Shown here piece by piece: positions 1-55,466 of a stretch of 56,713 nucleotides of DNA. Source of the stretch: an uncultured Gammaproteobacteria bacterium (lineage in GTDB: Bacteria; Patescibacteriota; Microgenomatia; UBA8517); contig CAZCNT010000002.1 of the NCBI GenBank assembly GCA_964500695.1, positions 1 to 56,713 of the forward strand, written 5' to 3'. The notes under the pieces were generated by a model. That model ran no database searches. It had not been told where the DNA came from and was given only the letters and a program-made list of their open reading frames with translations. How positions within the stretch are numbered: the stretch's first letter is position 1; each line of letters opens with the position of its first letter. Made by a program: the position numbers and the translations under genes.

Positions 1-103
1 AAGAATGCCAGTCCGCAATGGGGTTATCTATTTTATACAACCTTACAGCAAAACCTCCAACTAGAATCAAGAGTAACAAAAATAACTCAAATTTACGGTT
101 CAT
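1..103 (-). CDS. 5' end (34 codons) of a GT-C / ArnT-PMT-like polytopic glycosyltransferase; the gene continues beyond the window start
   Basis: Minus-strand ATG at 103-101 forms an ATGA overlap with the stop of the upstream ORF. Translation is MNRKFELFLLLLILVGGFAVRLYKIDNPIADWHS: one TM helix followed by the RLYKI..P..DWHS opening typical of GT39/GT83-type enzymes. It is truncated, so it is absent from the ORF track. Confidence 0.5.
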   Translation of the reverse strand, partial: MNRKFELFLLLLILVGGFAVRLYKIDNPIADWHS

Positions 104-1560
104 ATTGTTTTATCCCCCTTCGCGAATACCCCGGGCTTAAAGCCTCTGTGGGTAAGCGAAGAGGCCTCGCTTCGGAGGGATTCCGCTCCTGACGAAGCTT
201 GGGAGAAGATACCCCGACCGTTAGGTTGGGGGGCTTCATTCCTAACTAAGATAACAGCATACCCTATCAATAACCAGTAGATGGTTGCAAATTTAGACGC
301 CTCAAAAACGTCTATGAAAATTGCCGTTAAAAAAGTGCCAACCACTGCGCCAATTATTCCCGCTATATAAGACGTTTCTAAAGTGTCAAAATCTTTCCTA
401 TTTTTAATAAACTTCCAGAAAACCTTACCTATTCGGCAAAATATTAAGCTAAAGGTCGCAAAACCCAAAAGGCCAATCTCTCCCAAAATCCTCAAATAGT
501 CATTATCTGTCGCCAAACCGATTGAAGAATACCCTGTTCCGAGCGCGGGATTTTTATAAAAAGCCATAATTGCCCTTGGCCACTCAACATACAATCTGAT
601 TGAGGTCGATCTATCCTCCGACACCAGGGTAATCGGCGAAACATCCGAAGAGGCCGCCATCACCTCTATCTTAAAAAATGAAGTATCGACAATCTTTAGT
701 AGCTGCTGATATCTTCCCAAAAAACTTGGAAAGGCCAAAACAATAAGTACGGCCGCGGTAAAAATTGCAAAAGTTGCTTTATATTTTTTAACCAATATTA
801 GTGAGATACATGAGGCCAAGACCCACGAGGCAAGTGAAACTCTGGAAAGTGATGCTCCCAAAAGCCAAAGACCGGGACCGATTGTTCCGAGTAGCCAAAA
901 CTTCAATTTCATTTTATCTGTCAGGAAAAAAAGTGTCGTGAAGATCGGTAAAACCAAGACAATGTATGATGCCAGGTCATAATGTCCCGCAAATGTCGAG
1001 TTAATATGCGCGCCAGGCGTCCATCTTAATGCTATCCCTTTTGAATATTCACTATTTTGCGTATCAACTACGGGAAAATTGTAAAATCTTTGTCCAAACC
1101 CATAAAGAAATATAACAACAGTAACTATCATCAAAATCTTTATATAATAATCTAAATTATTTCTTGCATCCTTATTGTTTAAAGCCAGAAGCGCAAAAAG
1201 CGGAACGGCGTACTCAATGCGTCTAAGAAAGTGTAATAAGGCTATCGACGGAGTTACTGTATGACTTATGAAAATACCGGACACTAAAGAGACGAGACCG
1301 ACACCAAAAAAAAGCAAGAAAGCAATAATTATCTTATCTTCCAAAAAACTTCTGAAGTTCTTAAAGATTTTAATCAGGGTGAAAATCCCCAAAATCAAAA
1401 TAACAAAATCTTCGGCTCTTATAGAAACATACGTTCCGGAAATGCGTATAAAAGGAAATTTCGGGTAAAGGCAAACAATAATCAAAACTGCCGCCAATAA
1501 ATATTTCGGAAAATTATTTAGCCAGTAAGGCGTTCTAAGCCAAGACAAATATTTTTGCAT
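100..1560 (-). CDS. Wzy / O-antigen-ligase-like polytopic membrane protein, C-terminally extended by repeat element copy A
   Basis: 486-aa ORF with many hydrophobic segments and a larger loop before the last TM helices, as in the O-antigen ligase/Wzy_C family. The last ~45 aa (..SQASSGAESLRSEASSLTHRG..) are encoded by the repeat at 109-246. The stop overlaps the next ATG. Confidence 0.6.
   Translation of the reverse strand: MQKYLSWLRTPYWLNNFPKYLLAAVLIIVCLYPKFPFIRISGTYVSIRAEDFVILILGIFTLIKIFKNFRSFLEDKIIIAFLLFFGVGLVSLVSGIFISHTVTPSIALLHFLRRIEYAVPLFALLALNNKDARNNLDYYIKILMIVTVVIFLYGFGQRFYNFPVVDTQNSEYSKGIALRWTPGAHINSTFAGHYDLASYIVLVLPIFTTLFFLTDKMKLKFWLLGTIGPGLWLLGASLSRVSLASWVLASCISLILVKKYKATFAIFTAAVLIVLAFPSFLGRYQQLLKIVDTSFFKIEVMAASSDVSPITLVSEDRSTSIRLYVEWPRAIMAFYKNPALGTGYSSIGLATDNDYLRILGEIGLLGFATFSLIFCRIGKVFWKFIKNRKDFDTLETSYIAGIIGAVVGTFLTAIFIDVFEASKFATIYWLLIGYAVILVRNEAPQPNGRGIFSQASSGAESLRSEASSLTHRGFKPGVFAKGDKTI
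109..246. repeat. GC-rich ~140-bp dispersed repeat, copy A (partner at 6357-6497)
   Basis: Direct alignment by eye with 6357-6497. Shared blocks: tttatcccccttcgcgaa, taccccgg, ggagggattccgctcc, gacgaagc, gggagaagataccccgac, aggttgggg, gcttcatt. Internal inverted pairs: cttcgc 118-123 / gcgaag 156-161, and gcttcg 169-174 / cgaagc 193-198. Confidence 0.85.
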
Positions 1561-2434
1561 ATGTTTTTCCGAAAATCGGAATACGGATCAGGGCTCCAAC
1601 TTTTAAAAGAAATCTCAGGATGGGGAACTGCCAGGAAGCCATATGTTTATTATAAAAAATTTTTAAACCCTTAACCTCGTTAATAAGTGAAAATTCTTTT
1701 ACAGAACTTGCTCCTCCAAAGTGAATTATGCTCCACTTTGGTAAATACATAACTTTCCAGTCAAGACGCTTTGCTCTGAAACAGTAATCAACTTCCTCCA
1801 TGTACATAAAATAAGCTTTATCAAAATATCCAACTCTCCGAGCCACCTCTTTTCTCATCATAAAGAAGGCTCCGGTAATCCAATCCATTGAGTGTTCTTT
1901 TTTATAAAAATTGGAATTTGATCCAAAAGGCGAAAGGTTATGCATGGGATGAAAGGATTTGAGCAATGTTGAAATTCCCGGCAAGTCATCCAAAAATGTC
2001 ATCCAGACAAAAACCTTAGGCAGTGTCGGAAAATATCCGCCGGTTGCCTGAATACTCCCATCTTTGTTTTTCAAACTGCAGCTTGCTATTCCAACCTTTG
2101 AATTTTTATCCATCCACCCAACCATCTCCCCTATTACATTGTCCATAATTAATGTATCTGAATTGAGTAATAATAGATATTTTCCCTTCGCCTTTTTAAT
2201 CCCCTGATTATTTGCTTGCCCAAAACCAACATTTTCTCTGTTAAGAACCAAGGTTATATTTTTGTTTGATTCCACTAATTTTTTTAAGGCGCTCACGCTT
2301 CCATCTTGGGAATTGTTGTCAACAACTATAATTTCAAACAAAACACTTTTTGTTTTTTTGATAATAGAGTTAATTGCGTCAACTGTTAACTTTATTGTAT
2401 TAAACGAGATAATAATAATAGATATATCTTTCAT
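1535..2434 (-). CDS. GT2 family glycosyltransferase (rhamnosyltransferase-like)
   Basis: ISIIIISFNT..VVDNNSQDGS..LLLNSDT (DxD-type) motifs with a GT-A fold layout. 299 aa. Confidence 0.9.
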   Translation of the reverse strand: MKDISIIIISFNTIKLTVDAINSIIKKTKSVLFEIIVVDNNSQDGSVSALKKLVESNKNITLVLNRENVGFGQANNQGIKKAKGKYLLLLNSDTLIMDNVIGEMVGWMDKNSKVGIASCSLKNKDGSIQATGGYFPTLPKVFVWMTFLDDLPGISTLLKSFHPMHNLSPFGSNSNFYKKEHSMDWITGAFFMMRKEVARRVGYFDKAYFMYMEEVDYCFRAKRLDWKVMYLPKWSIIHFGGASSVKEFSLINEVKGLKIFYNKHMASWQFPILRFLLKVGALIRIPIFGKTYAKIFVLA

Positions 2435-2518
2435 ATTATATATGTGCGTATATTATATATGTGCGTATATTATATATGTGCGTATATTATATATGTGCGT
2501 ATTTTATAAATGTGTGTA
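2434..2518. repeat. 17-bp tandem repeat: 4 perfect units (tattatatatgtgcgta) plus 1 degenerate unit
   Basis: Units at 2434-2450, 2451-2467, 2468-2484 and 2485-2501 are identical. Unit 2502-2518 has diverged. On the gene (minus) strand each unit reads tacgcacatatataata and contains TATAAT. Confidence 0.95.
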
Positions 2519-3010
2519 TATTTTTCTAAACTCCATGTATAGCAAATATGTAAGTCCCAATGTTGCAGCTCCAACAACAAGGCGTATCCACATAGAGCTT
2601 TTAACAAACCTGACTATAACTTTTTGACGGTAATGTACGCCATTTATGTTAATTTCGTATTGGGCGTCTTCCGGTTCAAACCCGTTGATATAAATGCTTT
2701 CGCGAAACGGATGCACAATCTCCTGCAAAAACGTGCTTTTTGTCTGATCACGAATTACGTCTTGGGCATTTTCAGGAGGGTAGTTTAAAACTACTCCCCA
2801 CTTAAATTGGCTTCTATACCAATCCATCACCTCGGCTCTTGTCATGTCGGTATAGTAACCGCGTCTTAAGGGTGTTTCTGTGTCAGCGGGCTCGTCCGAT
2901 TGTAAGGATCCGGGAAGGGAGATAGGAAAATCGACATTGGGTAAACCGAGATATACAAGAAGAAAAATTCCAAATGCGATTAATGCGGCCCTGAATATAA
3001 TATCTTTCAT
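2504..3010 (-). CDS. Hypothetical bitopic membrane protein (TM helix at each end, ~110-aa soluble middle)
   Basis: 168-aa ORF in the operon, with a 1-nt stop/start overlap to the upstream gene. No family recognised. The last codons (RKIYTHL*) are encoded by the degenerate unit of the 17-bp repeat. Confidence 0.55.
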   Translation of the reverse strand: MKDIIFRAALIAFGIFLLVYLGLPNVDFPISLPGSLQSDEPADTETPLRRGYYTDMTRAEVMDWYRSQFKWGVVLNYPPENAQDVIRDQTKSTFLQEIVHPFRESIYINGFEPEDAQYEININGVHYRQKVIVRFVKSSMWIRLVVGAATLGLTYLLYMEFRKIYTHL

Positions 3011-4786: not shown

Positions 4787-5846
4787 TATAGACGTTCAAA
4801 GTCATTTTGGCCGTCTTTTCCCAAGAAAAATCTTTCACTCGGGCTATTCCCTTTTCAATTAATCCCTTGGGGCCATCAAGAGCCTTTTTAATGCCCTCTG
4901 CAATCGAATTTACATCGTATGGGTCAACGAGTACTGCAGCTCCTCCGGCGACTTCAGGCATCGAGGAGATATTGGACGTTACAACCGGCGTTCCGCAAGC
5001 GAACGCTTCCAAAATTGGCAAACCAAAACCTTCATAAAGCGATGCGTAAACCAAAGCTTTTGCTCCGGAATAAAGAGCAGGCATCTCATCCGCCGCTCCC
5101 CTGCCAATCATCCTGATATTTCTCGATTCTTTTACTGTCATGTATTTAGGTATTCCTACAAAAACGAGCTTTAGTTCTTTTCCTGTCGAAGCGTGTTCAA
5201 AAGCTTTAATGGTTCTCTCTGTGTTCTTACGGGGGTCAACACCAACGCAAAGAATATAATCTCCAAAAATTTTATGTTTTCTTTTTACCTCCTCTATTCG
5301 CACTTCAGTTGGTCTTTTAAAAATACCCGAGACACTTTCTGGTGTTACCCTAATAATAGATTCCTTAAAACCCAACTTAACCAGATCTTTTTTGGTTGCC
5401 GTGGCAGGAACGAGAATTCTATCCGACTCTTTCTCTACCAATTTCAGTTTTGCCTTGTGAGCATCAACAATGTTTCGAATCATATCTCTCGGAAACAAGC
5501 TGGGATAAAGAAACGGTGCAAGATCGTGTACGGTAGTTACTTTAAAAGTAGAGCTAGGGGGCTCCGCCCAGTCTGAGGTATGAATCACGTCAACTTTTCC
5601 AATCAACTTCTCTATTGGTAAGGTATGAAATCTATTCCAGACAATATTCATCAGAACTGGCGGGATTGGAAAGACTTTTGTTTGGGGAAAAATCTTCAAA
5701 ATGTCACTTTTTCTACGAAAAGCTCCAGCAAAAAGGATGTATTCGTTTTCTTTATCAATCCTAAGTAGGTTTTTGACTAGCTCGATTGTGTACTGGGAAA
5801 CCCCTGTACCATAGACTATTTGGCTGACGTCAATTGCGATTTTCAT
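4770..5846 (-). CDS. GT4 family (GT-B) glycosyltransferase
   Basis: EGFGLPILEAFACGTPVVTSNISSMPEVAGGAAVLVDP. I prefer ATG 5846 (MKIAIDVSQ..), which forms an ATGA overlap with the stop of the upstream gene, over the track start at 5861. Confidence 0.9.
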   Translation of the reverse strand: MKIAIDVSQIVYGTGVSQYTIELVKNLLRIDKENEYILFAGAFRRKSDILKIFPQTKVFPIPPVLMNIVWNRFHTLPIEKLIGKVDVIHTSDWAEPPSSTFKVTTVHDLAPFLYPSLFPRDMIRNIVDAHKAKLKLVEKESDRILVPATATKKDLVKLGFKESIIRVTPESVSGIFKRPTEVRIEEVKRKHKIFGDYILCVGVDPRKNTERTIKAFEHASTGKELKLVFVGIPKYMTVKESRNIRMIGRGAADEMPALYSGAKALVYASLYEGFGLPILEAFACGTPVVTSNISSMPEVAGGAAVLVDPYDVNSIAEGIKKALDGPKGLIEKGIARVKDFSWEKTAKMTLNVYNEARK

Positions 5847-7261
5847 TTGGTATATTTCCAAAAGACTACTCCGTTAAAATTGTATTCCGAGGCCTTATTA
5901 TAGCCTAATGCCTCCACATTTTTCCTTGCAGAGTCTCCTGAATCAAATATCTCCCATACATACCTTGATAACCAGATATCTTTATCCTTCTGTGATATTT
6001 GAGAAGTATTGATTATCTGCTCTCCTTTTCCATAATAAATAAGTGCTTCTTTTTGCGTAGCCGCAGGAAATACTATTTTGTCTTCTCCGATTGCAGACGC
6101 AGCTCCTCTCCAATCTTCCCTCTGAAATCTGGGAGCTATCAAATAGTACATTGTACTTATTAAATTAACGCCCAAAACTAAACACAAAAATAGTTTTCTG
6201 TGCTTTCCCAAATTCCCAATCGCCTTGGCTATCAAAATATAAAATGCCGGAAGAACAAAAAGAAACCTAAAATAAGAAAGCGTTGGAATTTTAAGACTAA
6301 CTATTATTCCAATAAGAATCGGGGTAATTAACCACGCCCACAAAAGCTTAGAGTCCTTTATCCCCCTTCGCGAAATACCCCGGACGTAAGCCCGCGGGTG
6401 TAGCGAAGTGGTTTCGTTTCGGAGGGATTCCGCTCCCGACGAAGCGCTGGGAGAAGATACCCCGACTATAAGGTTGGGGAGCTTCATTGCCCTAAACAAC
6501 AAATACCCAAAGAGTGAAGAAATTAAACCAACCAAAACTGCGTAAAGCGTTTTATCATCAAAACTGATCCTACCTATCATAAACTTAACCGGAATCAGGA
6601 GGGTATTCTTAAAAGTCGCCATTCCCAATAACTGCAACCAAGAAGTCTTTACTGCCGATCCCACCACAAGTTGCTTTATAAAAATTGGCAACCAAATAAT
6701 AAAGGTAACGGCTAACGGAACGTGACTAAATGTCAATTTTTTCCTATCGTTCCAACCTGTAATCCAAAAAACAGGAATAATAAATAGTGAAACATAGTCG
6801 GTCATACCTAACAAAAGTAAAATTACAGAAAAATAAATCCACTTTTTCTCCAAAAATAAATAAACCAGGAAGCCTACCAAAAATGCTGCCAAACTATACA
6901 TTCTCGCCTCTTGAGAATAATATACGGCCAACCCTGACGTGGCCATTAGACTTGAAGAAATTAGCCCAACTCTCCGGTTAAACAGTTTCGCCGCTACTAA
7001 GTAAGTTGCATAAATTGTCGCTACCCCAAAAATAACGGATGGAATCCTAAGAGCCACCTCACCCATTCCAAATAATGCTACCCAACCTTTAAGAAACAAA
7101 TAATAAAGTGATGGATGGAAATCTCCGGGTAGAAATTTTGAAAAAATGTCCGCTACCGACATTTTTGCAACCAAAGCACTCGTTGCTTCATCCAGCCAGA
7201 GGGATTGATTAATTGAAATGAGTCGAAAGATAAATCCAAAAAATATAATTAAGTAAATCAT
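5843..7261 (-). CDS. GT-C fold glycosyltransferase (GT39/ArnT-PMT-like) carrying repeat copy B in-frame
   Basis: N-terminal TM helix followed by the SLWLDEATS first-loop Asp-Glu motif, then multiple TM helices. Residues ..SSPSASSGAESLRNETTSLHPRAYVRGISRRGIKD.. are encoded by 6357-6497. Confidence 0.8.
   Translation of the reverse strand: MIYLIIFFGFIFRLISINQSLWLDEATSALVAKMSVADIFSKFLPGDFHPSLYYLFLKGWVALFGMGEVALRIPSVIFGVATIYATYLVAAKLFNRRVGLISSSLMATSGLAVYYSQEARMYSLAAFLVGFLVYLFLEKKWIYFSVILLLLGMTDYVSLFIIPVFWITGWNDRKKLTFSHVPLAVTFIIWLPIFIKQLVVGSAVKTSWLQLLGMATFKNTLLIPVKFMIGRISFDDKTLYAVLVGLISSLFGYLLFRAMKLPNLIVGVSSPSASSGAESLRNETTSLHPRAYVRGISRRGIKDSKLLWAWLITPILIGIIVSLKIPTLSYFRFLFVLPAFYILIAKAIGNLGKHRKLFLCLVLGVNLISTMYYLIAPRFQREDWRGAASAIGEDKIVFPAATQKEALIYYGKGEQIINTSQISQKDKDIWLSRYVWEIFDSGDSARKNVEALGYNKASEYNFNGVVFWKYTK
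6357..6497. repeat. GC-rich ~140-bp dispersed repeat, copy B (partner at 109-246)
   Basis: Aligned by eye with copy A. The inverted pairs are conserved: cttcgc 6366-6371 / gcgaag 6403-6408, and gtttcg 6416-6421 / cgaagc 6440-6445. Confidence 0.85.
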
Positions 7262-33076: not shown

Positions 33077-34425
33077 AAATATCAATCGTGGGGTCAGGCT
33101 ACGTAGGATTAATTACGGGAATCTCGTTGTCATCACTGGGACATAGAATCACATGTATTGAGAACAATAAGGACAAAGTTTTCGCTATTAATAATGGTAA
33201 ATCTCCATTTTACGAACCCGGAGTAGATCTGGCTCTTCAAAGTGCTATTAAAAAGGGTCTACTTCAGGCAACAGAATCACTTAAAGAAGGTGTGATTAAC
33301 TCTGATATCACAATTATCGCCGTAGGAACACCTACTATAGATAATAAAATCGATCTTACATTCGTTAAGAAAGCATCGGAAGAAATTGGGAGAGCCTTAA
33401 GAGAAAGTAAAAAATATCACGTTGTTACCGTTAAATCCACCGTTTTACCCGGTGTTACAGAGCAAGTTGTTAAACCAATAATAGAGAAGTTTTCAGGCAA
33501 AAGCATCGGAGAGTACGGCCTTTGTATGAGTCCCGAATTCTTAAGCGAGGGAACGGCTATTAAGGATGCGCAGGAACCGGACAGAATCGTCATTGGTCAA
33601 TACGATGATAAAAGTGGTATGGAATTTGCAAAAATATATAATGGAAGCAAGGCACCTATAATATTTACCAATCTTTGGACGGCCGAACTGACAAAATACA
33701 CTGCCAACTCGCTACTTGCCACACTAATCAGTTTTTCCAACGAAATAGCCAGGATAGCAGAAGCAACCGGCAAAGTGGATATCTTGGAAGTATGGAAAGG
33801 AGTGCATCTCGATAAGAGGCTCAGCCCAATAAATGGAAAGGTCAGAATAAAACCCGGGGTGCTAAAATTTATTCTTTCCGGATGTGGATATGGCGGAAGT
33901 TGTTTCCCGAAAGATACCAAGGCAATTGCCAGCTACGCCGACGAGCTTGGAATAGAAACTTCGCTTATCAAAAGTGTTATTGAAATAAACAACACTCAGC
34001 CTATTAGAACGGTAAAACTATTAGAGGATGTTTTAGGGAAAAATTTGGCCGGTAAAAAGATAGCCGTATTAGGATTAACTTTCAAACCAGATACCGACGA
34101 TCTTCGAGAATCTCCGGCTTTTCCTATCATCAATGAATTACTTTCGGAAGGAGCAATTGTATTCGGGCATGATCCCAGGGCATACAAAGAAAGCGTTCCC
34201 CCACAACTTTCAAGTCTTGGTATCTCCTTAGCCAATTCGACAGAGGAAGCTCTCAAAAATGCCGATGGCGTTATTGTTGTAACTTCCTGGAAAGAGTACA
34301 CACAATTAACTCCCAAGTTTTTCAAAGAAAATATGAAACTTCCGGTTGTAATCGATGCCAGAAGAATTTATAATAGGAGCTCATTTACAAACGCTGGAGT
34401 AATCTACAAAGGAATTGGTCTATGA
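33073..34425 (+). CDS. ugd: UDP-glucose 6-dehydrogenase family
   Basis: MKISIVGSGYVGLITGISLS.., ..GCGYGGSCFPKD.. catalytic Cys motif, ..LGLTFKPDTDDLRESPA... 450 aa. Confidence 0.9.
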   Translation: MKISIVGSGYVGLITGISLSSLGHRITCIENNKDKVFAINNGKSPFYEPGVDLALQSAIKKGLLQATESLKEGVINSDITIIAVGTPTIDNKIDLTFVKKASEEIGRALRESKKYHVVTVKSTVLPGVTEQVVKPIIEKFSGKSIGEYGLCMSPEFLSEGTAIKDAQEPDRIVIGQYDDKSGMEFAKIYNGSKAPIIFTNLWTAELTKYTANSLLATLISFSNEIARIAEATGKVDILEVWKGVHLDKRLSPINGKVRIKPGVLKFILSGCGYGGSCFPKDTKAIASYADELGIETSLIKSVIEINNTQPIRTVKLLEDVLGKNLAGKKIAVLGLTFKPDTDDLRESPAFPIINELLSEGAIVFGHDPRAYKESVPPQLSSLGISLANSTEEALKNADGVIVVTSWKEYTQLTPKFFKENMKLPVVIDARRIYNRSSFTNAGVIYKGIGL

Positions 34426-50934: not shown

Positions 50935-52495
50935 TTCCACTCACCACATAGAACGCATCACTCCCATCAGGGTACTTAATCAATTCATTGACGTCAAACT
51001 GATTAACGAACCTCAAACCTCCATAATAACTCGGTGTAACAATATACAATATTTTATAATTCGGATAGCTGTTTATTATATTCCAGCCCCCGAATTGATA
51101 TTTGTCAAAAGACGATACGGTATTATAACTCTTTGATTCACTTTCATCGTATTTCACCGTTTTAAGAAGCTCCGGAAGTGGGGTTTTTAGATAGTAAAGG
51201 AAAAATATGTATGGCTGCTGTCTAATTTTGTCCATGTAAACTTTTACATAATCGGGGTTCCTCTTTACATAATCAGCGATCTGCTTCATGCCATATTGCC
51301 ACTCTATGGCGTCTTTCTTTGAATACTCCGTAAAGTAGTAGTTAACATAATGACTAGCTTCTTTGCTTAAAATGGTCAGCAATATAACAAGAACGGCTAT
51401 CTTTAACCAACTTTTTCTAAACACCGAAATAATAGCTTCTGCTCCGGTAGCCGAAAAGATCAGTACAGGGGCTATCATAAAAATACCTCTTGTGGCACTG
51501 GGCTCTAGAGCCGAGACCGCACCGGGAATCGGAGTTAAAGCTAACCAGCTCAAAAGCACCAACAATCCTTCCCACTTCCTGCGCAGTAAAAGGGCAATGA
51601 TTCCGACAGCAATAAGAACCAAATCAATTTTATAAAACTCCCCTATTGTCTTTACTGATGCCCTTGGCTTTAAATCGCCATTTTCAAACAGATATGAGAA
51701 GGTAAAATAGCCCTTATAATTGTGTATTACGGTCCCCAATTCCCCTCCATACGGCTTAGTTACTTCTTCTGAAAATTTGTTTTGATCAATTCTGGCAAAA
51801 CCCAAAATTCTAGGGTCCTTTATCACCAATCCGGTAAAAAGCATCACAATCGCGATTGAACATAACAGTATTTTTTTATTTGCAACCAACTGCCTGAAAT
51901 GAATCAGGCAAAGGAGAAGGACTAACGGAGGCACAACCACTTTGGCTGAATGATATGAAAAGAAACTCAATCCAAAAAATACAAACGACAAGGGAAAGAA
52001 CCATAGTCTTTTACCTAAACTTACATAAAAACAGGCAAATCCCGCTATCAAGAAAAATAGAGCAAAATTTGCCTCCCACAACCCCCTTGAGTAATGTATT
52101 GCATATGGAGATACGGCAATAAATAATCCCGAAAATAATGCCGCCAGTTCATTTTTAAAAAGTTGCCTGACAAATATGTAAATTGCAAGAATACTTAATA
52201 CACCGATCGCGGCACTACCGGCACGAGTTGAAAAATCAGATAACCCAAAGGTTTTTACAACAATTGCCGTTAAATAAATATGAACAGGGTGTTTATCATC
52301 CCCAAAATTCTTAAAAACTGTTGGAAATTTGTTTCCATACTCATCCGCTCCCCAATTAGCAATCGTATAAGCATTATAACCCGCGGCAACTTCATCCCAG
52401 TTTAGAGAAGGCGGAATTTGGTCTAATTTGTAAAAACGCAAAATAGCACCTAATACCAAAATCATTGCCAATATTATTAAATAAATCCTTTTCAT
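50927..52495 (-). CDS. GT-C fold glycosyltransferase (GT39/ArnT-PMT-like), tandem paralog 1 of 3
   Basis: RFYKLDQIPPSLNWDEVAAGYNAYTIANWGADEYGNKFP first-loop motif. Polytopic with a C-terminal soluble domain. Confidence 0.8.
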   Translation of the reverse strand: MKRIYLIILAMILVLGAILRFYKLDQIPPSLNWDEVAAGYNAYTIANWGADEYGNKFPTVFKNFGDDKHPVHIYLTAIVVKTFGLSDFSTRAGSAAIGVLSILAIYIFVRQLFKNELAALFSGLFIAVSPYAIHYSRGLWEANFALFFLIAGFACFYVSLGKRLWFFPLSFVFFGLSFFSYHSAKVVVPPLVLLLCLIHFRQLVANKKILLCSIAIVMLFTGLVIKDPRILGFARIDQNKFSEEVTKPYGGELGTVIHNYKGYFTFSYLFENGDLKPRASVKTIGEFYKIDLVLIAVGIIALLLRRKWEGLLVLLSWLALTPIPGAVSALEPSATRGIFMIAPVLIFSATGAEAIISVFRKSWLKIAVLVILLTILSKEASHYVNYYFTEYSKKDAIEWQYGMKQIADYVKRNPDYVKVYMDKIRQQPYIFFLYYLKTPLPELLKTVKYDESESKSYNTVSSFDKYQFGGWNIINSYPNYKILYIVTPSYYGGLRFVNQFDVNELIKYPDGSDAFYVVSGNQ

Positions 52496-53814
52496 GGCTT
52501 AAATTGAAACCCATTAAACGATGCCACTTTTGAAAATCCCCATTCACTTACCTGATTTAGTTTTACCTCTTTCCTAAATTTCTCAGGAGGATATTTCAGG
52601 TAGTAGAGAGCAAAAATATATGGCTGGGCATATCTATCGGTCACTACTCCCCCGGTTATTTCTGAAAATATCTGTTTATATTCATATTGCCAATCACTCA
52701 AAGTTTCCAGATTATATTTGGTAGAAAAATCCCGATAGTAGAACCCAAAAAAGATCAGGTAAATCCCTACCGTCACATATAGAAAATATTTTTTAAATGA
52801 GACCAATCCCACTGCAGATATTACTGCGAGGGATGGTGCCATGAGTATTGCTCGTAGAGCATGAGGGGATTCTTTGGTAATTGCCGCCGGGATCGGAGCC
52901 AAAACTAATAATAGTAGAAAAAGCCAGGTTAACTTGTTCCTATCCTTTATAACCCTCCATATTCCAATTAAAAGAATCGGGAAGTCCAAATAATAAAGTT
53001 CTCCCCACCCGGGAAGACCATGTCTCTTGATGATATCTCCGTTAATAAAAAGAAATTTTGGGTCAAAATGAGAAAGGTAATTTGTTATTATCCCGACAAA
53101 GCCATTGGCACCGACGGCTATCAACCTTACCGCCCCCGCATCCAACAAATACAGTCTGACAATTGGAATTAGACTAATCAAAAAAAATCCAAGAGCAATT
53201 AACTCCAACTTAATATCTTTGTGTTTTTGACTAATTAGCCAAACAAACAAAATGGCCGGAATAATTATTCTAAATGAGTTGTAACTGTAAATTGAAAGAA
53301 TTGCGGCAAGTGAAGAAAGAATTATGTAGTATCTCTTTTCCTGATACAAAAGGAGGAAAATAAGGAACACAAAAAAGAAAAATAACCCCGCCGTCGCCTC
53401 AAATCCCGTTCTTGAAAAAATAAAAAGCCAGGGAGAAATGGTTAATAGAAAAGCAGAAGCCAATCCCACACTTTCTTTCTTCGTTATCTTCTTGGCTAGG
53501 AAATATACTGCAATTATCGTTCCCAGGGAATATAAAACAGCGGGAAGCCTTAGAGTAATTTCGTTTGATCCGAAAAGTTTTGTCAGAATGGCAACGCTGT
53601 ATATGTAGACCGGAAGCTTAAACTCGCCAAAAGCCCTGAAATGAAGAGGGAGAGTATCTCCCCACTCATCCTTCAAGTCTGTCGCAACAGCAAAAGCGTT
53701 GTACCCGATTGACGCTTCATCCCAATATACAGATGACGGAATCTGTGCGATCTTATACAACCTAGTCACCAAAAAAAGTAAGATTATTAGAACCAGTAAT
53801 AAATATTTTTTCAC
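52492..53814 (-). CDS. GT-C fold glycosyltransferase (GT39/ArnT-PMT-like), tandem paralog 2 of 3
   Basis: RLYKIAQIPSSVYWDEASIGYNAFAVATDLKDEWGDTLPLHFRAFGEFKLPVYIY. ATGA overlaps on both sides. Confidence 0.8.
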   Translation of the reverse strand: MKKYLLLVLIILLFLVTRLYKIAQIPSSVYWDEASIGYNAFAVATDLKDEWGDTLPLHFRAFGEFKLPVYIYSVAILTKLFGSNEITLRLPAVLYSLGTIIAVYFLAKKITKKESVGLASAFLLTISPWLFIFSRTGFEATAGLFFFFVFLIFLLLYQEKRYYIILSSLAAILSIYSYNSFRIIIPAILFVWLISQKHKDIKLELIALGFFLISLIPIVRLYLLDAGAVRLIAVGANGFVGIITNYLSHFDPKFLFINGDIIKRHGLPGWGELYYLDFPILLIGIWRVIKDRNKLTWLFLLLLVLAPIPAAITKESPHALRAILMAPSLAVISAVGLVSFKKYFLYVTVGIYLIFFGFYYRDFSTKYNLETLSDWQYEYKQIFSEITGGVVTDRYAQPYIFALYYLKYPPEKFRKEVKLNQVSEWGFSKVASFNGFQFKP

Positions 53815-55466
53815 TCTACTTTAACTATCTCAAAAGCTCTGTTACCGTTAAGAAAATCAACCGTTAAAAGTCTTGGCAAGCTATCGGGAAAGTCTCTAGG
53901 CTTTCCGATAAATAAAATCTTTTTACCCGGATTTTCTTTTCTAATATCGGCAAATTTAGTACCTATATCCCCTAAATCAGGAAAGTAGAATTTATCAAAC
54001 CTTAAAACCCTCACCCAATCGTAAGTCTCAAATCTATTCAAATTTGGATCATTTTGAAATTTGCCGGGATCCCAACCGGTGAAGAAAAGAGTAAACATAT
54101 GAGGTTCTCCATAAGTTCTGCTGAAAACTATCAGATCATAATCGTTATAGTGTGACTTTATGTAGTTAACCACTTGTTTGTTGCCATATTGCCAATCACG
54201 GGAGTAATTGATGGGATAATCAATATAGTATTTTTTAAGATAAATACCAAAATTAAGTCCAAATAATAATACTGTGACAGAGACTAACAAGACAATTTTT
54301 AACTGTTTGCTTTTGGTCTTTTGAAAAAACTCATATATACCAATAGCTGTAAATATTTGATATACAGGAACGGCGATTAATGTTCTTAATGCATTTGGAA
54401 TACTGTCATTTGTCATAGACACTGGAACAAAAGCTAAAAATAACCACGGCAGTAAAATTTTTAAGCTTTCATCTTTTCGCTTAATCAATAAGTAAAGTCC
54501 AAACAATAAAAATGGAGCTTGAATCCAATACAGTTCACCAACACCTTGAACATGATGTTGTTTATGCCCTGCACCGTTTATAAATAGAAAATTTGGTGTA
54601 AAGTGAGCAATATAATTCTCCGTAAAATATAAGGTGTTATATGTATATCTGTTATGAATTAATTTGGTTAAGGTTAATGGAAGTTTTGATAAATTTCTTC
54701 TTTCTTCGATTCTTGGAATTAAACCCGCATCGTCTGTGATACTCACTAATTTATACCTCGCAGATGCTTCTCCGCTTAATATAAAGGGTATTAAAGGCAA
54801 GAGTAATACAAAGAAAAGAAAGGCAAAAATAACTGACTCTTTTTTCATTGCCAAGAATCTTTTTCTATAAATCAGTGCGACAAGTGCAAGAAATAGGGGT
54901 GTAAAAACACGGGCGGAGTTATATGTATAAACTGATATTGTAAAGGGTATTACACTTAATATTAACCATTTTGGTTTTTCAAATCCTTTCACTAGCCACC
55001 AAATGCCAAGCACTATCCACATTACTGCAAATGATGATTCAAACGAGGCCCTAGTTAATTGTATGTGCCATGGGGAAATTGCAAGAAAAAACGATGAACC
55101 TAAAGCAACCCATTTATTTTTGAATAACTCCATAACTAAAAAGTATAAAAGAAGTACAGTTAGGGTTCCGTAAATTGCAGGTGTAATTCTTACACCAATT
55201 TCGTTTAATCCAAAGATCGCAATCCCCGGAATTGAAGCATAGATTTGAACCGGAAGTTTGTACTCCCCGTAAGCCTTAAAATGAACCGGAAACTTTACTC
55301 CCCACTCATCTTTTCCGGTCTTGAGAATTGAATAGGCATTATATCCGATCGAAACCTCATCCCAGTTCAAAGAAGGAGGAATCGAGGTTATATTATAAAA
55401 CCTTAAAAAGAAAGCCAGGACAACAATTGCAATTAGAGCCAAATATTTTTTCAAAAATGATATCAT
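53811..55466 (-). CDS. GT-C fold glycosyltransferase (GT39/ArnT-PMT-like), tandem paralog 3 of 3
   Basis: RFYNITSIPPSLNWDEVSIGYNAYSILKTGKDEWGVKFPVHFKAYGEYKLPVQIY. Confidence 0.8.
   Translation of the reverse strand: MISFLKKYLALIAIVVLAFFLRFYNITSIPPSLNWDEVSIGYNAYSILKTGKDEWGVKFPVHFKAYGEYKLPVQIYASIPGIAIFGLNEIGVRITPAIYGTLTVLLLYFLVMELFKNKWVALGSSFFLAISPWHIQLTRASFESSFAVMWIVLGIWWLVKGFEKPKWLILSVIPFTISVYTYNSARVFTPLFLALVALIYRKRFLAMKKESVIFAFLFFVLLLPLIPFILSGEASARYKLVSITDDAGLIPRIEERRNLSKLPLTLTKLIHNRYTYNTLYFTENYIAHFTPNFLFINGAGHKQHHVQGVGELYWIQAPFLLFGLYLLIKRKDESLKILLPWLFLAFVPVSMTNDSIPNALRTLIAVPVYQIFTAIGIYEFFQKTKSKQLKIVLLVSVTVLLFGLNFGIYLKKYYIDYPINYSRDWQYGNKQVVNYIKSHYNDYDLIVFSRTYGEPHMFTLFFTGWDPGKFQNDPNLNRFETYDWVRVLRFDKFYFPDLGDIGTKFADIRKENPGKKILFIGKPRDFPDSLPRLLTVDFLNGNRAFEIVKVE

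Follow-up and report, generated by a model that had tools for sequence, protein, structure and literature searches.

The 56,713-nt stretch of DNA analysed here (the window) carries two copies of a small GC-rich repeat that is shown to be a dispersed, sharply bounded and polymorphic DNA insertion, placed precisely 3′ of the tetranucleotide TTAT. The repeat is probably a non-autonomous, ends-only IS200/IS605-type (PATE-like) element of Microgenomates that behaves like a Rickettsia palindromic element (RPE). In the window, copy A has added 42 codons to a Wzy-like gene, five codons before its stop, and copy B has added 42 codons within a loop of a GT39 glycosyltransferase.

The two stretches can be aligned end to end, with a mean column identity of 84% in MAFFT, flanks included, and blastn identifies a 71-nt block shared by copy A and copy B at 90% identity (E = 2.7e-17) together with a second block of 27 nt at 96%. 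The element has a GC content of 57% compared to 37% for the window. The GC-rich repeat described in the original prediction at 109–246 and 6357–6497 was recovered along its whole length, with some correction of its limits: the ends at 246 and 6497 overshoot by 7–10 nt, and the starts at 109 and 6357 take in two T residues of the target. The copies located by nhmmer and by a covariance model with filters off (111–239 and 6359–6487, both on the + strand) are the only ones in the window, where searches with blastn-short, nhmmer --max and the covariance model with filters off gave no more than these two. A weak nhmmer match at 34199–34257, scoring 6.6 bits with the covariance model, was dismissed as noise. 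No tRNA or tmRNA was found in the window. When more than 100 copies from elsewhere are aligned, similarity stops at an element start of (TT)TATCCCCC and an element end of GAGCTTCAT, giving a length of 126–129 nt across copies; the unit is 129 nt long, and 126 nt in this window. Terminal inverted repeats are absent, as the left end TATCCCCCTTCGC bears no similarity to the reverse complement of the right end, ATGAAGCTCCC, in alignments of 24 and 103 copies. The right end has the layout GATA-hairpin-AGCTTCAT.

Copy A, for which the top strand is the + strand of the window and the boundary rule is taken from a filled and empty pair of loci described below (L139/L094), matches the covariance model at 111–239 with 108 bits. 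The TTAT that would serve as target and left cleavage site (C_L) lies at 110–113 (+), in the flank directly 5′ of the element proper (CCCCC...GGCTTCAT; 114–239, +), a stretch of 126 nt or 42 codons that orthologues do not contain. Within it, the + strand carries a putative left guide (G_L) AATA at 125–128, which occupies the four positions just before the left hairpin foot and pairs with TTAT by the IS608 scheme of G1:C2, G2:C1 and G4:C4. This is followed by a left subterminal imperfect hairpin (CCCCGGGC..GCC.TCTG.TGGG; 129–152), identified from folds and from covariation in A3 columns 23–30/35–45, and by a strongly conserved central hairpin predicted by folding (GCTTCGG-AGGGATTCCGCTCC-TGACGAAGC; 169–198). 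The putative right guide (G_R) GATA at 208–211 is directly 5′ of the right subterminal hairpin (CCCCGACC-GTTA-GGTTGGGG; 212–231; covariation in A3 columns 148–155/160–169), and the putative right cleavage site (C_R) TCAT at 236–239 makes up the final four bases of the element, its end lying 8 nt beyond the hairpin foot. The host gene (100–1560, −) encodes a Wzy_C/O-antigen-ligase-like membrane protein of 486 aa (Pfam Wzy_C, E = 2.9e-10), in which copy A supplies residues about 441–482. The repeat had been read as the C-terminal tail of this protein, and the open reading frame does pass through copy A to a TGA overlapping the ATG of the next gene; however, this is not a run-on tail, as the element is a 42-codon in-frame insertion positioned five codons (KQYEQ) ahead of the native stop. 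Orthologues of the 100–1560 protein end in ...LVRNKQYEQ and lack the element tail. An additional A puts the native KQYEQ tail out of frame, as DNA comparison with L140 and L145 shows, so that copy A is followed by no more than K-T-I-stop, and in the relative L140/P0121 the sequence ...KQYEP is still present after the element.

Copy B matches the covariance model at 6359–6487 with 127.5 bits and has the same arrangement on the + strand. Its TTAT target and left cleavage site were assigned from sequence at 6358–6361, and the element proper occupies 6362–6487 (126 nt, 42 codons), the orthologues being short of exactly 42 residues. Putative guides are found at 6374–6377 (G_L, AATA) and 6456–6459 (G_R, GATA), each followed by a subterminal hairpin supported by folds and pair counts (CCCCGGAC-GTAA-G.CCCGCGGG at 6378–6398 and CCCCGACT-ATAA-GGTTGGGG at 6460–6479), and the C_R TCAT at 6484–6487 marks the right element end. 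The inverted pairs cttcgc/gcgaag and gcttcg/cgaagc noted in the original prediction are found in both copies, and the C-to-T difference in copy B preserves a G-T(U) pair on the + strand, T6417 with G6444, within the conserved central hairpin (6415–6446). The host, a GT39/PMT_2-type membrane glycosyltransferase of 472 aa (5843–7261, −; Pfam PMT_2), is unrelated to the Wzy_C host of copy A, in agreement with the earlier claim. Copy B lies in frame in the middle of this ORF and encodes residues about 259–301, in a loop between two predicted helices; in an AlphaFold model, residues 261–302 have a pLDDT of about 28–31 and are flanked by helices 237–259 and 298–321. Host orthologues are 423–445 aa long with a 42-residue gap at the element position, and orthologous empty sites read CTTTAT|TCC in L023 and L024. 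The relative L140, in which copy A is present, has an empty site at the position of copy B, while the closer relative L025 is filled. One example of a host-element junction peptide is ...LVRNEAPQPNGR.

The search for further copies that had been proposed as a test of the prediction revealed many in both genomes and metagenomes, with 22 genome loci and at least 119 metagenome loci yielding at least 153 copies. Among the matches listed, distinct insertions number 112; they have TATCC...TTCAT as ends and lie between flanks that are unrelated. The loci examined are windows of up to 15 kb around copies, about 1.1 Mb in all. As conserved blocks served as search patterns, the apparent conservation of those blocks is inflated, although the central hairpin is also conserved in copies gathered by a pattern that does not include it. 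All named hosts are Microgenomates (Woesebacteria, Daviesbacteria and Gottesmanbacteria, in genomes and metagenomes), and as far as sampled the element is confined to this group of the Candidate Phyla Radiation (CPR). At least 3 copies lie in one Microgenomates genome, CP066686.1. No copy was found in viral contigs with two different patterns, and literature searches gave no relevant CPR report of such an element or of its own motifs. Many copies are intergenic and many others lie in unrelated genes, including those encoding GatB, Sua5/TsaE (TsaC/TsaE), UvrA, YchF, LeuRS, GT39, Wzy, DUF2298 and VanW proteins.

The insertion site is precise. TTAT directly precedes 99 of the 103 aligned copies, with T at −1 in 95% and T at −2 in 87%, and the strongly conserved flank bases are confined to the left side. 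In a metagenome pair with flanks 98.8% identical, the empty locus L094 reads GATTTTTAT|ATTGCC and the filled locus L139 reads GATTTTTAT[CCCCC..TTCAT]ATTGCC, an insertion of 129 nt that retains TTAT without any duplication. Comparison of the flanks likewise revealed no duplication above chance (0–1 nt in 86 of 111 copies). A TA-duplicating insertion of the Tc1/IS630 type was rejected, as only about one copy in four has TA as its right flank. The copies also show signs of having converted or recombined with one another, including chimeric flanks.

The length of the element and its reading frames appear to be constrained by translation. Element length is a multiple of three in 102 of the 112 distinct insertions (p = 2e-37) and in 25 of 35 length variants (p = 5e-6). 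The same holds for every one of the 22 copies lying deep in an ORF (at least 60 open codons on either side), whereas eight of the ten copies of other lengths are outside long ORFs. Four of the six frames of the element consensus contain no stop codon, a number reached by only 13 of 5000 shuffled sequences. Copies are often intragenic and in frame, as the original prediction had suggested should be checked, and they are read in several ways by their hosts: antisense f2 in 41, antisense f0 in 25, sense f2 in 23, sense f0 in 21 and sense f1 in 2. Antisense copies outnumber sense copies by 66 to 46, a bias in orientation that runs against what a naive lagging-strand-template model would predict, and that could be caused by differences in frame openness. 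Judged from sequence, the 3n length and stop-codon constraints point to selection at the level of translation, from which we infer that the inserted codons are translated. An intron or translational bypass was rejected on the grounds that both orientations occur and that these constraints show the insert to be read. A mini-ORF within the element was also considered, since the gene-sense strand starts with ATG and ends with TAA, and was dismissed because the frames differ and lengths vary. The end of the element shows a weak and confounded enrichment as a source of Shine-Dalgarno sequences for genes downstream (23 versus 11 of 112).

Both element ends carry predicted hairpins, CCnCGAGC-GTAA-GCTCGnGG and CCCCGAnC-GTAA-GnTCGnGGG, which are imperfect, alike and in direct orientation; they share the form CCnCGRnC-GTNA-GnYCGnGG, and each is irregular at the third pair. 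The RNAalifold consensus on the 103-copy alignment was partly wrong owing to gaps, so helices were specified and pairs counted, giving 82.8% paired cells for the left hairpin and 94.4% for the right, with many double changes. The folding check suggested in the original prediction was therefore positive, as the helices covary across copies. The C_L is positioned 16 nt from the left hairpin foot, on the 5′ side, and the end of the C_R is 8 nt from the right foot, on the 3′ side. The putative guide tetranucleotides, AAWA on the left and GATA on the right, complement TTAT and TCAT, respectively, the G_R being GATA in 101 and the C_R TCAT in 100 of 103 copies. Under the IS608 scheme, all six guide/cleavage positions are Watson-Crick pairs in 92–102 of 103 copies, a six-pair fit with a chance probability of about 8e-4 when three registers are allowed for, and it is obtained only in the register that places TTAT in the flank and TCAT at the element end.

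Diverged copies show compensatory changes at these positions. In L034 and L119, a G_R of GAWT accompanies a C_R of TCAA; in L057, a G_R of GAGG accompanies TCAC and a G_L of AAAT accompanies a flank of TTAA; and in L078, a G_R of AATA accompanies TTAT, the left end of this copy missing one predicted pair. The hairpin stems also change together between families, with CCACGGC at both ends in L057 and L078. These comparisons show predicted hairpins that covary and putative guide and cleavage sites whose complementarity is kept by compensatory changes between sister families. For one sister family the left-end assignment is tentative, and with the boundaries used three diverged copies are not multiples of three. 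G-T wobbles outnumber A-C mismatches by 102 to 60 overall and by 50 to 16 in the right hairpin, in counts that are not phylogenetically independent, and the hairpin loops are GTNA on the + strand. The strand asymmetry is modest, as one copy folds equally well on either strand as DNA.

These features resemble those of the IS200/IS605 family, in which the element would join others without terminal inverted repeats or target duplication, with similar imperfect hairpins near both ends on one strand and with insertion 3′ of a tetranucleotide that is retained in the left flank (TTAT here, TTAC in IS608). IS608 has a G_L of AAAG with a C_L of TTAC and a G_R of GAAT with a C_R of TCAA, and a pairing scheme of G1:C2, G2:C1 and G4:C4 with A+16:T-3 and A+17:T-4 (PMC5934647). 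The same scheme fits the C_L/C_R of TTAT/TCAT and the G_L/G_R of AAWA/GATA in the present element, and its distances from hairpin foot to cleavage site, 16 and 8 nt, are comparable to the 19 and 10 nt of IS608 (PMC3201880, PMC5934647, PMC7290912). PATEs are short elements that have palindromic ends only and are moved in trans (PMC3201880, PMC5934647, PMC7290912). The present element differs from both IS200/IS605 and PATE elements in several ways: no tnpA, tnpB or full-length parent was found in the window or in the approximately 1.1 Mb of loci; it is unusually short (126–129 nt) and includes an invariant hairpin at its centre in addition to the two near its ends; it keeps a 3n length with four open frames; and its host range is CPR/Microgenomates. 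Many copies also lie in frame within genes, essential ones included; to our knowledge, in-frame residence in genes is not a described PATE property.

From these likenesses we infer an enzyme and a single-strand pathway. A Y1 HUH transposase (TnpA) encoded elsewhere in the genome would act on the top strand, that is the + strand of the window, binding the two similar subterminal hairpins and locating the cleavage sites by pairing with the four bases 5′ of the hairpin feet (TTAT-AAWA and TCAT-GATA). The element strand would then be excised as a circle, which would be joined to single-stranded DNA 3′ of a further TTAT without duplicating the target. Most insertions would land in genes because the host genomes are almost wholly coding; the 3n length and four stop-free frames mean that an insertion therefore only adds 42–43 residues, and insertions would be kept in proteins that can accommodate an additional loop or a longer terminus. 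A motif regular expression identified no Y1 transposase in the 56.7-kb window and the approximately 1.1 Mb of loci, nor did tblastn with an approximate IS200 TnpA query find a TnpA there. The recurrent gene families near copies were of host type only (GT39, ABC/UvrA, GT2 and AbiE), no longer element with the same ends was found, and orphan left and right ends in the 1 Mb of loci were chance-like.

The failure to find a TnpA gene in the window and loci would also be expected if the repeat were moved by other machinery and its likeness to IS608 ends were convergent or coincidental, which we consider unlikely for the candidates taken jointly: an AT-duplicating transposase, an IS91/Helitron-like enzyme of the rolling-circle type that inserts between A and T, or gene conversion and recombination. 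The AT at the junction can be read in two ways, as TTT[AT..core..AT]T is compatible both with a 2-bp duplication and with none, and such a duplication by a different enzyme would yield the same sequences. The signs of conversion and the chimeric flanks agree with recombination, and the 5′ TC start, 3′ subterminal hairpin and A^T site loosely recall Helitron termini, but the element end is not CTRR, and the conserved flank bases, being left-sided only, are unfit for a symmetrical target duplication. Other machinery also leaves unexplained the fit of six of six guide/cleavage pairs to the IS608 scheme in more than 90% of copies in one register only, the compensatory changes in three sister families, and the twin direct hairpins co-evolving at both ends; these favour the IS200/IS605-type reading.

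The covarying helices, and + strands that fold better than shuffles (z = −4.4 and −3.8), are also compatible with a family of structured-RNA genes expressed from the + strand, such as an antisense regulator, ribozyme or guide-type RNA with copies within genes by chance. GNRA-like loops (GTAA, GTGA) and G-U wobbles favouring the + strand fit this idea; however, a quarter of the loops are GTCA or GTTA, better matched by a DNA GNNA than an RNA GNRA motif. Copies occur in both orientations relative to host transcription, promoter- or terminator-like sites are absent beside both window copies, and Rfam 15 gave no match in the window at gathering score and none at E ≤ 10 over positions 1–400, which includes copy A. 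An RNA gene would have no reason to keep a 3n length or avoid stop codons on both strands, and the exact ends of an insertion that is present at some loci and absent from others speak for a mobile element, so the antisense structured-RNA alternative raised in the original prediction finds no support and we regard an RNA gene family as very improbable. In both window copies, ...ASSGAESLR... is encoded in one local frame, as would be expected of a shared protein segment such as a conserved peptide motif or domain, yet beyond these residues their reading frames differ. Across copies, use is made of four frames and of both strands, many copies are intergenic, the segment is absent from orthologues, and the AlphaFold model shows a loop of very low confidence. 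Use of both strands and empty orthologous sites refute a protein motif, and we give this reading almost no weight. The DNA-level repeat read in frame that had originally been proposed is instead supported by the further copies, the in-frame hosts and the tail-less orthologues. A template or variable repeat of a diversity-generating retroelement was also rejected, as copies occur in either orientation at over 100 dispersed and unrelated loci, and the sequence examined gave no sign of a reverse transcriptase. A role of the window copies as intrinsic terminators or promoters was discarded, as no such sites adjoin them.

The original prediction had likened the repeat to RPEs or to REP/MITE-like elements; the in-frame read-through bears this out, but a classical MITE does not fit, as terminal inverted repeats are absent. 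MITEs are defined by inverted repeats at their termini and by the target-site duplications that DDE transposases generate, and the present element, which is similarly small, non-autonomous and multi-copy, has neither. REP-associated RAYT transposases derive from the IS200/IS605 family, and REPs and REPINs are hairpin repeats thought to be handled in trans by a domesticated IS200/IS605-type Y1 enzyme, without an internal transposase. The element is likewise a hairpin-forming repeat with no transposase inside; however, a REP is an extragenic palindrome of 20–40 nt that carries a conserved 5′ tetranucleotide, and a REPIN combines two inverted REPs, whereas here a single 129-nt unit holds two hairpins in direct orientation and has left and right ends that differ from each other, with at least 22 of the 112 copies located deep in ORFs. 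Classical MITEs, including Correia, ERIC, Nezha and the Coxiella QMITE, are sometimes intragenic and can form in-frame fusions (PMC10969869). RPEs are in-frame insertions in unrelated genes, including housekeeping genes, that are apparently translated and fold-compatible (reviewed in PMC10969869). Both are repeats of about 100–150 bp with strong secondary-structure potential, and the element is also found in frame in unrelated ORFs, its 22 deep copies all being 3n and copy B lying in a predicted loop. RPE copies are described as using one conserved peptide and frame, while this element uses both strands and four frames; the phylum also differs, and the element ends point to a specific mechanism, whereas that of RPEs is unknown.

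The repeat breaks or chimerises metagenome assemblies, with contigs seen that share one flank and not the other. Gene calls are affected as well, with inflated protein lengths and spurious extensions at the N and C termini, and strains can be distinguished by whether a copy is present or absent. As an IS200/IS605-type element, it would tie RPE-like in-frame repeats to a defined and testable chemistry, the guide/cleavage-site pairing of Y1 HUH enzymes. It is a source of 42–43-residue loops in CPR surface glycosylation enzymes and housekeeping proteins, some of which might have been co-opted by their hosts. In some of the smallest bacterial genomes, transposable DNA would persist in essential genes (GatB, UvrA, LeuRS and YchF) by translatability and not by gene avoidance. 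More tentatively, the 3n length and stop-free frames may be properties of the master copy under transposon-level selection, rather than the result of mere insertion filtering, in a lineage that evolved for intragenic life. If true, the element would be a single-strand transposon that is 'coding-compatible' and has adapted to CPR genomes so compact that they have hardly any intergenic space.

Copies A (111-239) and B (6359-6487) of the repeat both lie on the positive strand within minus-strand ORFs encoding a Wzy_C-type protein (100-1560) and a PMT_2/GT39 glycosyltransferase (5843-7261), respectively. The original prediction that positions 109-246 align with 6357-6497 was borne out, with BLASTn matching the copies over 71 nt (90% identity, E = 2.7e-17) and again over 27 nt (96%), and the element is GC-rich as claimed (57% GC vs. 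37% for the window). No third copy was found in the 56.7-kb window using nhmmer or a covariance model run without filters. The genes scanned between 100 and 9123 function in cell-envelope glycosylation (Wzy_C, GT2, and PMT_2/GT39); in the close relatives L025, L145, and L146, this set is joined by genes for GT4, hexapeptide acetyltransferase, radical SAM, and methyltransferase proteins. Elsewhere, too, it is GT39-type genes that most often neighbour or host the element, one family accounting for 24 loci. The window contains two other repeats: a 17-bp tandem repeat, ATATTATATATGTGCGT (2433-2522; approximately five copies, 92-100% identical), where ORFs 1535-2434(-) and 2504-3010(-) are separated by a short gap, and a 74-nt direct repeat at 72% identity (53600-53673 and 55240-55313) within two neighbouring ORFs of the minus strand, 52492-53814 and 53811-55466, which probably reflects paralogy of these two genes.

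Further copies, the search for which had been proposed as a check, are numerous in Microgenomates genomes and metagenomes. An exact 22-base core pattern matched 22 loci in a species-representative genome collection, with at most five matches per MAG, and a pattern of the left end plus one internal block only matched at least 119 metagenome loci. In the collected loci, nhmmer identified at least 153 copies, at least 112 of them distinct insertions complete at each end. The copies resemble one another from (TT)TATCCCCCTTCGC to GGGAGCTTCAT, and their flanks are unrelated. Informatively named hosts of the 22 loci are Woesebacteria, Daviesbacteria, Gottesmanbacteria, and other Microgenomates. The TPA MAG records L002, L005-L007, L009-L011, L014, L018, and L020 are titled 'uncultured Gammaproteobacteria bacterium'; apart from these, every named host belongs to Microgenomates, and the labels look like placeholders or mislabels. 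No copy was found on viral contigs. Some contigs share one element flank and differ in the other (L008:5499-5630, L021:4917-5048, L031:1396-1527, and others); the L031 ORF, for instance, has a DUF2298 N-terminus on one side of the element and the C-terminus of a UvrA-type ABC protein on the other. Assembly chimeras or genuine recombination in MAGs seem to result from the repeat.

Comparison with empty sites identifies the element as an insertion. The metagenome contigs L094 and L139 have flanks 98.8% identical and differ solely by the element: the empty L094 reads GATTTTTAT followed directly by ATTGCC, and the filled L139 carries CCCCC...GCTTCAT between these sequences, a gain of 129 nt with zero duplication. 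At copy B, GT39 orthologues (61-75% identity, 423-445 aa) lack exactly 42 residues at the element, and their DNA reads CTTTAT followed directly by TCC; the copy is present in the 96%-identical relative L025 and absent from the more distant L140. Aligning orthologues of the 100-1560 protein, as had been suggested, was equally informative: Wzy-like orthologues end in ...LVRNKQYEQ* without the element, the window protein reads LVRN-[element]-KTI*, and the 91% relative P0121, encoded in L140, reads LVRN-[element]-KQYEP*. These C-termini show copy A to be an in-frame insertion five codons ahead of the native stop; in the window, a single extra A behind it moves the final codons onto the TGA at 102-100. 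Copy A's left hairpin (129-152) is wholly unlike that of L140:9499-9627, although the remaining element sequence and the two flanks are nearly identical; it equals that of copy L020:3666-3797, which suggests gene conversion between element copies. The end of copy A also places GAAGGGGGAT (101-125, minus strand) 9-10 nt upstream of the next gene's ATG (103-101), where the empty orthologue has AGAAACAAACAAT only. Long ORFs start no more than 30 nt from this element end in 23/112 copies and from the other end in 11/112, a weak hint that the element can possibly donate a ribosome-binding site.

Four frames, spread over both strands, are used where host ORFs read through the copies (antisense f2, 41; antisense f0, 25; sense f2, 23; sense f0, 21), which excludes a shared protein motif, the reading that would have undone the original prediction. 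Orientation relative to genes is 66:46, an antisense excess that does not show the simple bias expected and that differences in open frames may explain. Copies deep inside ORFs occur in GatB (within the catalytic domain), a Sua5/TsaC-TsaE fusion, UvrA, YchF, LeuRS, five GT39 paralogues, Wzy, DUF2298, and VanW. Of the 112 insertions, 102 have a length, measured from TATCC to TTCAT, that is divisible by three; the commonest class measures 132 nt (net 129) and the window copies 129 nt (net 126). Among length variants, 25/35 are multiples of three (p = 5e-6), including units with internal insertions (162, 168, 171, and 210 nt). The same holds for every one of the 22 copies flanked on both sides by 60 or more open codons; eight of the ten exceptions lie outside long ORFs. 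Four of the six frames of the consensus lack stops, a number reached by only 13 of 5000 shuffles. AlphaFold modelling of the GT39 host places the insert (residues 261-302) between two helices, as a loop predicted with very low confidence. This agrees with a surface loop that the protein tolerates, but the evidence is weak because the alignment rows of the orthologues have gaps at the insert. Lengths and frames indicate a DNA element selected to be translatable.

Four blocks are invariant in an alignment of 103 distinct copies: TATCCCCCTTCGC (left), GCTTCGG-AGGGATTYYGCTCC-CGACGAAGC (centre), GGGAGAAGATA, and GAGCTTCAT (right). Three helices covary: a left hairpin (CCnCGAGC-GTAA-GCTCGnGG), a right hairpin (CCCCGAnC-GTAA-GnTCG(n)GGG), and a longer-range GCNNAAAA/TTTTNNGC helix that competes with CTTCGC/GCGAAG pairing. 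Helix cells are paired in 86-88% of cases (33-50% with partners slid), with 222-265 double-change cells compared to approximately 80-97 in shuffles. The two end hairpins are alike and in direct orientation, with GTNA loops on the positive strand. G-T wobbles exceed A-C (102 vs. 60 overall; 50 vs. 16 in the right hairpin), a modest asymmetry pointing to the positive strand as the one whose fold matters; one copy, folded as DNA, does equally well on either strand.

The earlier reading of an in-frame element resembling Rickettsia palindromic elements or REP/MITE-like repeats is supported. As Rickettsia palindromic elements do (PMC10969869), the element sits in-frame in unrelated genes, but unlike them it uses both strands and four frames, in a different phylum. 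A classical MITE is rejected on structure, as the element has no terminal inverted repeats and no duplication at the L094/L139 site, and a REP/REPIN by the direct orientation of the end hairpins. The proposed antisense RNA was not supported, given no Rfam match and copies in both orientations. Structurally, the element corresponds to a miniature IS200/IS605 element. The TnpA of IS608 binds imperfect palindromes that lie subterminally in the top strand. Cleavage is at TTAC on the left (C_L), a flank sequence 19 nt 5′ of the hairpin foot, and at TCAA on the right (C_R), which belongs to the element and lies 10 nt 3′ of its foot; each site is recognised by pairing with the four-base guide that directly precedes the hairpin foot on its 5′ side (G_L AAAG, G_R GAAT), including A+16:T-3 and A+17:T-4, and insertion occurs 3′ of the target with DNA neither gained nor lost (PMC3201880, PMC5934647). 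A second hairpin following the left palindrome of IS608 has a minor role (PMC5934647).

The A+16:T-3 and A+17:T-4 pairs give a scheme of G1:C2, G2:C1, and G4:C4. Candidate counterparts here are C_L TTAT (99/103 copies), 16 nt 5′ of the left foot; G_L AAAA, AATA, or AACA and G_R GATA (101/103), the four nt 5′ of the left and right feet, respectively; and C_R TCAT (100/103), ending 8 nt past the right foot. Watson-Crick bases occupy all six predicted pairs in 92-102 of the 103 copies. Base composition puts the chance of such agreement at approximately 8e-4, with three registers of the ambiguous AT allowed for. The pairing fits solely in the register with TTAT in the flank. Insertion by another enzyme with a 2-bp AT duplication is a less likely alternative. 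Neither the window nor the 1.1 Mb surrounding the copies yielded a transposase, and no full-length parent element turned up in the loci around copies. Given the anatomy, guide/cleavage pairing, and co-changes in relatives, the repeat is probably an ends-only IS200/IS605-type element resembling PATEs (PMC7290912), putatively moved in trans. Searches of open literature found no mention of its motifs or of such an element in CPR bacteria, and no prior description was found of a PATE-like element held at multiples of three, with four open frames, in essential CPR genes.

Diverged relatives found by covariance model (L057:5785-5903(+), L078:1069-1185(-), L034:936-1063(-), L119:405-546(+), which equals L099:1823-1964(-), and L119:2678-2832(+), within an AbiEii-like toxin ORF) have other end sequences and centres. 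With the boundaries used here, three are not multiples of three. Guide and cleavage bases change together: L034 and L119 have G_R GAAT/GATT with C_R TCAA, identical to IS608; L057 has G_R GAGG with C_R TCAC, and G_L AAAT with flank TTAA; and L078 has G_R AATA with C_R TTAT. At the left end of L078 one predicted pair does not form, and in one sister family the left-end assignment is tentative. Left and right stems also co-change (CCACGGC at both ends in L057 and L078), as expected if both were bound by one protein. Since these sister families keep the same two-hairpin plan, the element superfamily is wider than the pattern-based sample.
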